Source of the DNA: an uncultured Gemmatimonadaceae bacterium
GTDB lineage: Bacteria > Gemmatimonadota > Gemmatimonadetes > Gemmatimonadales > Gemmatimonadaceae
Direction: 5' to 3'
Assembly: GCA_963829055.1 (NCBI GenBank)
Contig: CAWHHI010000003.1
Coordinates: forward strand, 288,001 to 352,000
DNA: 64,000 nucleotides
Below, piece after piece: positions 60,338 through 64,000 of this stretch. A program made the translations under genes and the position numbers. The notes under the pieces are model-generated. The model saw only the letters and a program-made list of their open reading frames with translations, had not been told where the DNA came from and did no database searches. How positions within the stretch are numbered: position 1 is the first letter of the stretch; every line of letters begins with the position of its first letter.

Positions 60338-60575
60338 CTACCGGCCGCCGTTCAGCTCCTCGACGCGGCGCGCCAGATCGCCAAACGTGCGCAGCCGCTC
60401 GAGGTCGGTCGGGTCGAACTCGATGCGGAAGCGCTCCTCGATCGCCATCACGAGCACGACGAGATCGAGCGAGTTGACACCGAGGTCGCGAAGGGACGAC
60501 GCCTCGAGGATCGTATCGTCCGATACGCCGAGCGACTTCGCGACGAGCCGACGCACCTCGGCGATCGGAATCGGG
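60338..60575 (-). CDS. Acyl/peptidyl carrier protein domain, probably fused to the upstream ferritin-like domain
   Basis: EVRRLVAKSLGV......SSLRDLGVNSLDLVVLVMAIEERFRIEF...L..LRTFGDL; no start codon or RBS of its own seen. Confidence 0.85.
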
Positions 60576-61171
60576 GGTCTCGGTCGCGGTCGGATTCGCG
60601 TAACTGCGCCGCGCGGTACGAGGGGTCGAGCAGCGCTCGCGGGTTGTCGCGGTAGCGCATCGCGGCCTCGTACACGCGCTGATCGACTTCGGTGAACCGA
60701 CGCATCGTCTCGGCCACGAGCGCCGCGCCCTTCTCCGCCGCGTAACGATCGAGGCGGTCCTTCACCCAGCTGATGTGGCCGACTTCGTCCTCGATCATCC
60801 GCTGGAGCGTCTCGATCACCGCGGGATGCATGTTCGGCCACTTGAGGTGCGCGCGGAAGTGGCGGATGACGCGTCGCTCGAACACCTGCGTGAGGGTGAG
60901 GATCTCGAGGAGGCTCGTCGGCGTGCCGATCTCGGCGTAGTAGCGCGTCTGATACGTCTCGGCGACGCGACTTCGGCGTGCCGCCGACTTTCAGAATCGT
61001 CTGCGTCCACAGCCACGCGTGGTTCGCCTCTTCCGCGCAGTGCTCGGTGAGATGCACGCGCAGATCGTCGTCGTCGGTCTCGCGCGCGAGGCGACCCATG
61101 ACGAGCCCTCCCGCGAGCTCCGACTCGCGGTAGTAGCTCAGGATCCAGAGGTCGTTTTCGCTAATTTCCAC
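60576..61171 (-). CDS. Ferritin-like diiron protein B (frameshift near 60968)
   Basis: AAGGAG RBS and GTG; YYRESE...AEEANH...VFERRV...EDEVGH = E, ExxH, E, ExxH ligand pattern. Confidence 0.85.
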
Positions 61172-61896
61172 CGGGAATGGACTCCTTGAGATGTTCGGTC
61201 GGCGCGAGCCCGCAGACGAGGCGGATCTTCCGGTTCACCGCCATGATCGCCTCGAAGTCGTTCTCCTCGGCGACCGGGACCTGCGACGACGTCACTCCCA
61301 TAGTGGCGGAATCGCTCCGCCGCCGCGAGCACCTGCGCGGCGACGTCGGGGTCGGCGGTCGATCCGCTTCTTGAGCACGTCGCCCGCGCTCGCGCTGTGG
61401 CGGAACTCGTCGCGCGACATGTAGCCTAACAGGTCACGCAGCACCGGCTCGTTCGTGCGTCGCGACATGCGCAGGAAGAAGTACGCGGCGAAGAGCTCCG
61501 AGCACATGAAGTTCGTGAGATGCGCGATGAGCTCGTCTTCGACGTATTCGATGGCGAGGGCACGCCCCCGTGCGGCGACGAGTGTCGCTCGCTGAAACTT
61601 CCTCGCGCTGGAAGCCGACGCGGTCGAGGTAGCGCGTGAGGGCCGTGAAGTGCTTGAGCCCCTCGTACAGCTCCATGCTGAGCACAGCCGTCGCATCGAT
61701 GTCATCCCACAGCAGCTGCATGAGACGCGCGGCGTACACGGGCAGATAGCCCTCGATGAGCGCCGCGTCATGCAGCGCCTGATGCAGCTCGCGCTCGGAC
61801 GCCGCGACGCGCTGGTCGATCGCGTCCCACGCGATGGTGGTGTCGAGCGGCCACGCGTTCTCTTCGGTGGCGCGGAGATGAGACTTCGTAGATCAT
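61161..61896 (-). CDS. Ferritin-like diiron protein A, AurF/acyl-ACP-desaturase-like (frameshifted)
   Basis: N-terminal W....IAWD.ID; LIEGY...YEGLKH...MCSE...RDEFRH; ATGA overlap with the methyltransferase. Confidence 0.8.
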
Positions 61897-62790
61897 TGCG
61901 CACGCTCGCTGGTGTCCGGCTGACGTCGTCGTTCGATCTTGCGAGCGACGACGAGCGTCTGCAACCCGACGTCGTCCTGCCGAGTGGTGGCCTCGTGAAA
62001 GCCCGCGATGCGAAGCCAGCGCACGAGCTCGTCGCCGGACGATAGTGCGTGTGGAGCTCCGCGAGCTGTCGCATCAGGTAGTCGGCGATGCGATCGGCCT
62101 GCATGCCGGACGTGACGAACGTACCGCCGTGCCGAAGACGGTCGTGACAGTTCCTGTAGAACTGCACGAGCAGACTCGTCAGCGAGGAATTCACCGAGCC
62201 CTGTGGAGACGATGACATCCAACTCTGACGGGAAACGCCTTCAGATCGAGGGCGTCGCCGTGGGTGAACACGAAGCGATCGTCTTCGCCCGCGAGCTGAC
62301 GCGACAGCTCGAGTGGCGCTGGATCGAGGTCCACACCGAAGAATGTGCTTCGCGCGTAGACCGCGGGGAGCTCATCCTCGATCCGCTTGGCGGCCACCAC
62401 GAGATCGCGCGCAATGCCGCACGGGACCGAGAGAACGCGGAACGGCGCGGTGTCCGGACCGCGCGGATCATTGGCCTTTCGCGTGTGCACCGCACGCGCG
62501 GCGGCGACGATCTCGTGCTGCGTGTGATGGAACCGGTTTCGCATGGAGCGCGCCCCACGCATTCGAAGCAGCATCGCGTCGAGCACGCGGCCGATGCCGA
62601 AGCGCCCACTCGCTTCGTTGCGATATACGTGATCAGCGAAGCGATAGCTGCCGGAGTTCTCGATCCCTTCGCGCGCGAGGTCGCTCGTGCGCATGAGCGC
62701 GTAGATCGGGAGCAGATGCAGCTTGCCCTCGCGCAGCAGCTTTCGCGGGATCGAGTCCGAGGTGCGCGTGCGGTTGTGCAGCGGCGTCAC
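61893..62790 (-). CDS. SAM-dependent methyltransferase, YnbC C-terminal (Methyltransf_20)-like (frameshifted)
   Basis: SGSYRFADHVYRNEASG..GIGRVLD, VLSVPCG.ARD, GVDLD, GDAL, DVIVSTGL.EFL.D; GTGA overlap with the ligase. Confidence 0.8.
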
Positions 62791-64000
62791 GCACGTCGCT
62801 CCGAGCCGACGCGCGGCGTCGCGCCAGCAGGCCGCGTGGCACGCTCGTCGACGCCATGTTGCGCGAGCACGGCCAGCACCCATCGCTCGAGGCCGAACGC
62901 GACGCATCCGCTGTGCGCTGGTCCGTCGGCCGCCAGCGAGATGTCGAATCGCGTGCCGAAGAAGTCGTGATGGTGGTTGAACGACGCGGCGGCAATAGCG
63001 CGGCCAGTCGCCGTCGACGGTGAGCAGCAGCTCGTACTTGAGCGCGCCCGCCTGCTGCATCAGCCGTCGGCCTTCGTCGCCGGCGGTGAAGAACGGGTCG
63101 GTCGCTGGCTCGATCCTGCCGTCGAGGTCGAGCGTCGTCGATGAGGTCGGACGACCTGCCTGACGAGCGACTGCCTAACGTCCTCCACTTGCTCGCGGCT
63201 GCCGAGCACGATGATCTCGCGCATGGTGAAGTCCCAGAGGCGCTCGAGCGGTACGTGGTTGCCGTCCTCGAAGCGGTAGCAGTCGGCCGCGTGCGGTGAG
63301 GATGGTCGGCGTCCGAGCCGACGGTTCTTCCCTGACCATTCGGGGTAGGCGTGATAGCAGACGGCTGGGGAGAGTGCGTGGCGGGATGCCGAGTCGATCG
63401 GGTCGATCATCCCGATGCCAGACAGCAGGTCCCTCGTTCGCACGATCGACGGGCTTCGCTCGGGATGACAGACGAGCGTTAGGTGCTGTGGGAACGATGC
63501 GACCTGTCCGGCGCGCTCGAGGACGCCCAGGTCGATCAGGCTCGGGTAGCGGTGCTCCGTGGCGCCGAGTGCGCGCGCCCATTCGAGCACGCGTGTGGTC
63601 GATCGGCGCGAGGACGTCGAGCGCGAGTCCCGACAGCGAGACCTGGCCAGCTGCCGTTACGACTACGTCGCCTCGCTCCCGCAGCACGCCAAGCGGCGAC
63701 GCGAATCGTGACCGGTCGCCTCGACGCTCGAACAGCCGATCGGGCGGCGCGGCTGACGCGGCCCGACGAAGCGTCCGGGTGAAACGCCAGCCACGATCGT
63801 TGCGATCGTGCGGAAGTTCGCGAGGCTGCACCGCGCGGTCGGGAATGCGCGCGCCCAGCGACTTCTCCACCGCGGCGATGAGGTCGAGGATGCGGAGCGA
63901 GTTCATGTAGCCGTCCTCGAACAGCCGCGTGTCGCGTCCGACGTTCGCGGCGCCGCCCAGCAACGTGACGTTGATGAAGTGTGCGAGCTGACGCTCGAGC
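62787..64000 (-). CDS. Amino acid:[carrier protein] ligase (class II SerRS homolog) with N-terminal carrier-protein domain; 5' end outside the window (frameshifted)
   Basis: ACP part: LFEDGYMNSLRILDLIAAVEKSLG..IPD....LANFRTI; ligase part: SFPQ, LSPAVCYH, CYRFE, RLWDFTMREI, ATDPFF, KYEL, SFNHH, HSGCVAFGLERW. Confidence 0.88.

Follow-up and report, generated by a model that had tools for sequence, protein, structure and literature searches.

The window studied here is a stretch of 64,000 nucleotides of contig CAWHHI010000003.1 from an uncultured Gemmatimonadaceae bacterium (G000:C3:288001-352000; window positions count from 1). The four minus-strand genes at its end belong to an operon of six genes, the first two of which are found beyond the window. 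The operon is real, conserved and apparently uncharacterised. It combines an amino acid:carrier-protein ligase with two carrier domains (acyl carrier proteins, ACP1 and ACP2), a beta-ketoacyl-ACP synthase III (KAS III)-like enzyme, a thioester-reductase (R) domain, an S-adenosylmethionine (SAM)-dependent methyltransferase and two ferritin-like diiron proteins, called FerA and FerB. It probably joins a small amino acid to a fatty acyl chain and releases a lipid-like product reductively. A more exact route, to an oxidised, methyl-capped N-acyl amino-alcohol lipid, is proposed tentatively, at slightly less than an even chance. Gene content and order, conservation, family assignments and intact catalytic residues are direct observations. 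The genes are as follows.

62787..64000, minus strand: fusion of ACP1 and the seryl-tRNA synthetase (SerRS)-like amino acid:carrier-protein ligase; at least four frame changes; start about 37 nt past the window
61893..62790, minus strand: class I SAM-dependent methyltransferase (Pfam PF12147, Methyltransf_20; 39 bits against a cut-off of 21); three frame changes
61161..61896, minus strand: FerA, a 243-aa ferritin-like diiron protein; three frame changes
60338..61171, minus strand: fusion of FerB, a four-helix ferritin-like diiron domain of about 175 aa, and the carrier ACP2; two frame changes
Contig about 352034-353146, minus strand, outside the window, upstream of the ligase: R-domain gene
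Contig about 353160-354130, minus strand, outside the window, upstream of the R-domain gene: KAS III-like gene
Contig about 354240-354695, divergent, beyond the KAS III-like gene: SRPBCC gene

Conservation and distribution of the operon

The operon was matched in 6 of 6 genomes of the same genus at 77-81% DNA identity, with intact reading in most, and is therefore not a chance arrangement. The gene order in these congeners is (PPTase)-KAS-R-ACP1~ligase-methyltransferase-FerA-FerB~ACP2, where ~ marks a fusion and PPTase is phosphopantetheinyl transferase, plus the divergent SRPBCC gene. A scan of GTDB with FerA gave 114 relatives, of which the best 80 were analysed; the counts given for FerA loci refer to these 80. 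The loci come from Gemmatimonadota lineages (78), one unidentified source and one Myxococcaceae record. Genes for KAS, R, ACP and ligase stand upstream of FerA in 57 of the 57 loci with at least 4.4 kb of upstream sequence, which answers the question, raised by an earlier sequence-only reading of this DNA, of whether the gene set is kept together elsewhere. FerB is present in 68 of the 72 loci with downstream sequence and absent beside FerA in the other 4. The FerA and FerB genes adjoin and overlap in most loci; in 3 of the 80, FerB has been relocated away from FerA together with its own carrier.

Two types can be told apart among these loci. Type 1, that of the window, has the PF12147 methyltransferase (34 of 80 loci) and ACP2, with SRPBCC in 23. 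Type 2 has DUF3419 (37 of 80), a free ACP1 and no ACP2; its companions are GNAT (33), MMPL (29, one of these loci being type 1) and radical SAM (13) genes. PF12147 and DUF3419 occur together in 0 of 80 loci, an ICMT-like gene stands in their place in 2, and the remaining seven loci are mostly cut by contig ends. An acyl-CoA dehydrogenase gene lies near FerA in just 3 loci. The DUF3419 protein has no match in PDB or NCBIfam. A second, related operon, of type 2, is found in the same genome (C20:130500-135000, L023) and contains KAS, R, ACP, ligase, FerA, FerB, DUF3419, GNAT and MMPL genes. The congener G005 also has both types.

Within the phylum, the operon occurs in a patchy pattern. The ligase has a match in 22 of 301 genomes of the phylum, a number of matches that does not equal the operon count: among 17 match regions inspected, a set that left out three top scorers and one distant match, 4 were the operon, 8 were of an ACP-acyl-CoA dehydrogenase-DUF1839 type, 4 were other arrangements and 1 was unresolved.

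State of the window copy

Successive genes of the window copy overlap by GTGA at 62787-62790, ATGA at 61893-61896 and the 11-nt GTGGAAATTAG at 61161-61171. The ligase gene contains the motifs MNSLRIL (63906-63886), AVCYH (63365), CYRFE (63281), MREI (63224) and SGCVAFGLER (62912), and ACP2 contains GVNSLDL (60481-60461); the iron motifs of FerA and FerB are likewise in the window sequence. When the sequence was re-read, every overlap and motif reported earlier was found in its place. The earlier order of ACP-ligase, methyltransferase, ferritin-like A and ferritin-like B-ACP holds for the last four genes of the operon, which had been expected to run past the window; the KAS III-like and R-domain genes were indeed retrieved upstream, as was PPTase in congeners.

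The window motifs fall in different reading frames, and comparison with an intact congener gives about 12 frame changes over the four genes (FerB 2, FerA 3, methyltransferase 3, ligase 4). These are probably assembly errors, because unrelated flanking genes in the window are also broken and short-read contigs of near relatives do not have the extra bases at 60970, 63593 and 63767. Given the same evidence, a pseudogene is the less likely reading of this copy. In a read check of the window copy, no run contained half of its words. One RNA run gave five short contig pieces over the ligase and methyltransferase genes, which is too weak to claim transcription. The operon proteins were analysed on intact homologues.

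The ligase and its carrier

The nearest solved structure to the ligase is Bll0957 (E 9e-65), followed by type-2 SerRS (6e-31 and 2e-15). The ligase carries no tRNA-binding domain and has an N-terminal PP-binding domain with its Ser instead. The Cys-Glu-Cys zinc triad and both motif 2/3 arginines are kept in 66 of 66 aligned ligases. Against the methanogen-type SerRS model TIGR00415 the score is 85 bits, below the cut-off of 489.55, and a canonical SerRS over the cut-off is encoded elsewhere in the same genome (C16). The protein is classed here as a Bll0957-like amino acid:carrier-protein ligase and not a SerRS, in agreement with the sequence-only reading. Scores of 173 and 194 bits against the NCBIfam equivalog NF005479 are below its cut-off of 357, which places the ligase in the same superfamily as a separate subfamily. 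The third zinc Cys is followed by Ala (CVAFG) in 66 of 66 ligases, as in Bll0957, and by Gly in both SerRS structures; we take this Ala to restrict the site to glycine. Glycine, a small amino acid, is the predicted substrate. ACP1 resembles carriers of the peptidyl carrier protein type in model scores, and its carrier Ser lies in MNSLRIL.

The KAS III-like enzyme and the R domain

Cys135, His250, His281 and Asp286 are kept in 63 of 63 KAS of FerA-type operons. The KAS has the motif GHxxxxD where FabH has GNxSAAS; the Asn of the FabH triad is absent, with His281 in 63 of 63, and the score against TIGR00747 is 62 versus 292 bits; the enzyme classifies outside FabH proper. The combination of the Cys with the His and Asp of GHxxxxD, as in KAS III-like acyltransferases of the AfcL/AfcO and ChlB3 type, is found in 63 of 63 FerA-type enzymes and in 50 of 50 enzymes of the sister type described below. 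Because these sister enzymes keep Cys, His281 and Asp286 while His250 is Gln in 50 of 50, the comparison points to Cys/His/Asp as the working triad. The KAS of all three operon types form one clade (FastTree support 0.94, weak rooting).

The R domain is a stand-alone short-chain dehydrogenase/reductase of the thioester-reductase type (PF07993), with GxxGxxG, Ser/Thr and YxxxK present and the catalytic Ser/Tyr/Lys in 65 of 65 sequences. Its nearest solved structure is the R domain of myxalamid MxaA (E 2.4e-40). The MxaA domain is part of a polyketide synthase-nonribosomal peptide synthetase (PKS-NRPS) and releases an amino alcohol, whereas that of the operon is free-standing.

According to the accessible portion of PMC12186527, AfcL and AfcO of the Burkholderia AFC-BC11 (afc) pathway have a Cys/His/Asp triad, and AfcL acylates an aminoacyl thioester at its alpha-amine. 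The KAS profile aligns to an afcO-like protein with an HH probability of 99.6, the afc gene names at that locus (L142) being inferred from gene order.

FerA, FerB, ACP2 and the SAM enzymes

Six metal ligands are conserved in each ferritin-like protein: E48, E78/H82, E133 and E163/H166 in FerA, and E18, E48/H51, E98 and E129/H132 in FerB. Both are modelled as four-helix bundles (pLDDT 82.6 and 92.6, respectively), that of FerB being of bacterioferritin size. N-oxygenases are marked by a seventh ligand, a His that precedes the second ExxH by four residues (PMC12154687, section 9); this His occurs in 0 of 78 FerA and 0 of 69 FerB. Against PF11583, FerB scores 22.8 versus 29.6 bits and FerA gives no score. 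Both proteins thus classify outside the AurF/CmlI family, and the earlier comparison with AurF and CmlI is not upheld at the family level; the presence of two diiron proteins and a SAM step is supported.

The best fold match of FerA (VIA) is stearoyl-ACP desaturase (Z 16.1, root-mean-square deviation (rmsd) 4.0, 230 aligned, 15% identity). Proteins with aldehyde-deformylating oxygenase (ADO) activity follow closely (Z 14-14.7). AurF and CmlI are not among the best 50 VIA rows for FerA, which excludes nothing. The acyl-ACP desaturase family PF03405 gives FerA 16 bits against a cut-off of 22.7. Foldseek returned nothing at E<=1e-3 for either FerA or FerB; its top row for FerA is ADO, at E 5e-3. 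Of 8000 scored candidates, grouped at 90% identity, 1579 clusters belong to FerA. Candidate distant relatives, ESM Atlas leads at 0.93-0.94, fall in unnamed, AurF 28% and FA_desaturase_2 79% clusters. A plasmid search with FerA and a divergent FerB gave no match. FerA also has a near-invariant WDDxD (63-67), an extra Glu75 and His197, and its first motif is ExxxH and not ExxH (L035 numbering); WDDxD, Glu75 and His197 may form an extra metal ligand or substrate site.

The FerA-FerB heterodimer raised earlier as a possibility is doubtful in an obligate form. FerB occurs in some operons with FerA and in others with an AurF-type enzyme unrelated to it; moreover, 3 of 80 loci have FerB relocated and 4 of 72 have none beside FerA. 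The FerA-FerB co-fold score was 0.00 in two runs, against a mark of 0.32, and is evidence neither way. ACP2 scores best with fatty-acid AcpP models. A sub-cassette of FerB, ACP2 and acyl-CoA dehydrogenase, sometimes with MMPL, is detached from FerA at L048, L067, L069 and L231. The SAM gene is drawn from three unrelated families in exchange: PF12147, DUF3419 and ICMT-like.

A sister operon type with an AurF-type oxygenase

When 251 genomes from the phylum to which the Myxococcaceae record belongs were searched for FerB, one match was strong and two were weak. The strong match lies in an operon (L144, G484:C202:1-8693) of AMP-ligase, ICMT-like, KAS, AurF-type oxygenase, ACP1, ligase, R, PPTase, FerB, ACP2 and MMPL genes, here called type 3. 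A metagenome scan led by the KAS of this operon gave 404 loci, and the best 80, a selection that favours the sister type, contained the AurF-type gene in 58, FerA in 8 and both in none. Conversely, an AurF-type match was found in 0 of the 80 FerA loci. Among the 58 AurF-type loci, 25 were long enough to show ligase and R, an ICMT-like gene was present in 38, and FerB in 19 (18 with ACP2). Of 12 sister operons inspected, 10 are immediately preceded by a gene for a fatty acid-CoA ligase or an Aas-like protein, and in L163 a fatty-acid desaturase gene stands beside FerB-ACP2. In the same range of loci (L153-L215), L191 joins the sister operon to DUF3419 and GNAT genes, and L209 is without the ligase. 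By their source labels alone, the type 3-like KAS comprise proteins from, among others, Gammaproteobacteria (a truncated label), Actinomycetota, Marinimicrobia and Flavobacteriales bins.

The seventh His is present in 49 of 49 aligned AurF-type oxygenases, two plasmid enzymes included. The sister-type oxygenases share 36-43% identity with an enzyme of Tistrella whose gene stands alongside those for ACP, ligase, nitronate monooxygenase and methyltransferase, and the sister-type ligases group with the ligase of this Tistrella-type cassette (SH-aLRT 99). This and all other ligase clade placements come from a quick tree only.

Proposed pathway and alternative explanations

The two unlike carriers, the loading enzyme, the fatty acid ligase of the sister type, the transferase-type KAS and the reductive off-loader together argue for a minimal lipo-amino assembly line, and we infer every substrate and reaction of the following scheme. 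The ligase would load glycine onto ACP1, and the KAS III-like enzyme would acylate the glycine nitrogen with a fatty acyl chain taken from ACP2. FerB, tied to ACP2, would oxidise the acyl chain on that carrier by desaturation or hydroxylation. FerA would oxidise the glycine-derived end, the presumed job of the AurF-type enzyme in sister operons. The oxygen introduced in this way, as N-O or C-O, would receive a cap from the methyltransferase, and reduction by the R domain would free the product as an amino aldehyde or alcohol. An NRPS-independent line, as the sequence-only reading had it, is supported. The tethered amino acid of that reading also stands. Given the KAS, the R domain and the fatty-acid-like ACP2, a lipid is a more likely product than a free unusual amino acid, one of the end products considered in that reading.

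Several points weigh against this route. A fatty acid ligase is missing from the window's type 1, as is ACP2 from the DUF3419-bearing type 2. The AfcL-like protein, a proven amide-former, failed to align to the KAS profile (E 0.17), and the afcO-like match carries no assigned reaction; the catalytic role of the KAS is a prediction. His250, kept in all FerA-type KAS, permits decarboxylative C-C chemistry. FerA appears to replace the AurF-type enzyme by position only; it does not have the seventh His of N-oxygenases, it is not significantly similar to the AurF-type enzyme of Tistrella, and its chemistry may differ from that of the enzyme whose place it takes. The grouping of the sister type with a ligase-AurF-nitronate-monooxygenase cassette points to full oxidation of the amine, which is incompatible with an amide. 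The substrates and product of the pathway are predictions from protein families and residues.

In the main rival, glycine on ACP1 would be N-oxidised first, to a nitroacetyl/aci-nitro or oxime form; the KAS would then acylate the alpha-carbon or the oxygen, the acidic alpha-carbon of nitroacetyl standing in for malonyl, R would carry out a reduction, and the methyltransferase would produce an O-methyl nitronate or oxime lipid. Besides the kinship of the sister oxygenases and ligases to those of the Tistrella cassette, it is favoured by the SAM enzyme kept in nearly all operon variants and by enteromycin carboxamide, which uses carrier-bound glycine, diiron oxidation and nitronate O-methylation (cited in the accessible portion of PMC9967187). 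It fits type 3 better than the operon of the window, because FerA is unrelated to AurF by sequence; moreover, the window ligase is not placed with support in the sister/Tistrella clade, and no precedent was found for C-acylation of a nitronate by a KAS III. Overall it is rather unlikely. A related route, free of pyridoxal phosphate (PLP), would lead to sphingoid-like lipids, with glycine on ACP1 N-oxidised by a new diiron class that dispenses with the seventh His, then C-acylated by the KAS III-like enzyme and reduced by R. The backbone would be a 2-nitro/2-amino-1,3-dioxygenated long chain capped by methylation or, in the subtype with DUF3419 and GNAT, by a head group of the betaine type plus a further acyl chain. 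This route is improbable.

There is a similarly slim chance of decarboxylative extension, in which an aminoacyl starter and malonyl-ACP2 would give a 4-amino-3-oxo acid, reduced and oxidised to a small signal or heterocycle with SRPBCC as cyclase. Cys135, His250 and His281, all invariant in FerA-type KAS, the SRPBCC gene in 23 of 80 FerA loci and a like logic in the dob pathway (accessible portion of PMC12154687) agree with it, but the Gln at position 250 throughout the sister enzymes of the same clade does not, and the presence of fatty acid-CoA ligases and of MMPL transporters suggests that the acyl chains are long. The earlier version, in which a FerA-FerB heterodimer oxidises the tethered amino acid alone before methylation to an unusual amino acid, draws on the adjacency and overlap of the two genes and on their full diiron ligand sets. 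It has a very small probability: it leaves the invariant KAS, the R domain and ACP2 without a role, FerB accompanies ACP2 and not FerA, and four of 72 FerA loci have no adjacent FerB. The most doubtful proposal is that an ADO-like diiron enzyme deformylates the aldehyde released by R, as in cyanobacterial alkane synthesis, to a lipid one carbon shorter (an alkane, an N-methyl amide or an enamide). In its favour, the Foldseek rows for FerA are headed by ADO and ADO-active proteins rank high in fold comparison, but all Foldseek rows lie above E 1e-3, no Pfam ADO match was found, and stearoyl-ACP desaturase covers more of FerA.

Comparison with known systems

The Bll0957 (B. japonicum) and Atu2573 (Agrobacterium) ligases, like that of the window, have a class II SerRS-like core, a zinc triad, no tRNA-binding domain and a cognate carrier. 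The window ligase differs in its fused carrier and falls in a clade separate from ligases of Bradyrhizobium-type neighbourhoods; its neighbours are KAS, R and diiron genes, while theirs are ACP, acyl-CoA dehydrogenase, DUF1839 and glycosidase genes. A 2022 review (PMC9437257, accessible portion) states the role of Bll0957-type ligases as unknown. The other ligase clade includes loci of Gemmatimonadota and Phyllobacterium (L119-L123, L125, L126, L131, L151) with ACP, acyl-CoA dehydrogenase, ligase, DUF1839 and GH2 glycosidase genes, and DUF1839-type loci lie near acyltransferase-like and polysaccharide genes. In L115 and L116, labelled by eye, the ligase occurs with a GNAT-like and an acetyltransferase-like gene (ACP too in L115) among glycosyltransferase genes, a context that suggests amino-acid transfer to polysaccharide. 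Diiron oxygenase-ACP-ligase cassettes were seen in Streptomyces with type II PKS/fatty-acid genes (L133, NZ_CP108007.1) and in Tistrella with nitronate monooxygenase and methyltransferase genes (L134, NC_017966.1). A Bacillus plasmid (L140, NZ_CP036072.1:450968-464340) has five KAS III-like genes, ACP, SerRS-like ligase, BtrH and acyl-CoA dehydrogenase without FerA or FerB, and a Streptomyces plasmid (L136, NZ_CP108348.1) has SerRS-like ligase, carrier, glycine amidinotransferase, DpgABC and a PGM1-type peptide ligase.

The glycine-derived nitronate cassette of enteromycin carboxamide was reportedly described by He and Ryan in Nat Chem in 2021. This cassette and that of Tistrella mobilis pTM2, as far as the accessible account goes, share with the operon a small amino acid on a carrier, a diiron oxygenase and a methyltransferase. 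The sister type further shares the oxygenase subfamily and a related ligase with ligase-AurF-nitronate-monooxygenase cassettes such as that of pTM2, whereas the AurF-type oxygenase is absent in all 80 FerA loci. The window operon adds the KAS III-like enzyme, the R domain, a second carrier and FerB, and has no nitronate monooxygenase.

The accessible portion of PMC12186527 describes afc as an NRPS-free lipopeptide route with a fatty acyl ligase; it shares with the operon a stand-alone carrier, Cys/His/Asp KAS III-like acyltransferases, ferritin-like desaturase homologues and a methyltransferase. However, afc loads by an adenylation (A) domain and the window by an aminoacyl-tRNA synthetase-like ligase, afc has no R domain, and its KAS belong to a different clade. 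The A domain, PLP decarboxylase and citrate synthase of afc are not among the conserved neighbours of the operon, and acyl-CoA dehydrogenase is the 3-in-80 neighbour noted above. Lipothrenin (lit) of Streptomyces aureus is a fatty acid-amino acid amide whose genes, in the accessible portion of PMC10616846, include a fatty acyl-AMP ligase (FAAL), an ACP and a second ferritin-like gene; an AurF-like diiron enzyme is proposed there to N-hydroxylate the fatty acyl amino acid amide. That portion lists no aminoacyl-tRNA synthetase-like ligase or R domain for lit, and the lit KAS III primes fatty acid synthesis.

Each part of the operon has precedent; the combination, FerA and FerB are without precedent in the open literature searched. 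No description of the gene set was found in the open full text of PMC and bioRxiv, subscription papers, MIBiG and supplements being outside this scope, which agrees with the earlier failure to match a characterised cluster.

Significance of the operon

The purpose of amino acid:carrier-protein ligases has been open since their discovery (PMC9437257, accessible portion). The operon gives a complete and compact pathway around such a ligase, with a donor carrier, a joining enzyme, a release enzyme and tailoring, and on its one scaffold three SAM enzymes can replace one another, as can two diiron enzymes. It also offers FerA and FerB, two ferritin-like families with no assigned function, a role that can be tested, and its compact size of six genes means that expression in E. 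coli could yield the product. If the sphingoid-like route were true, a phosphorus-free family of membrane or signal lipids would extend across several uncultured phyla. The operon points to a probable lipid or signal made by a soil phylum that has received little study.

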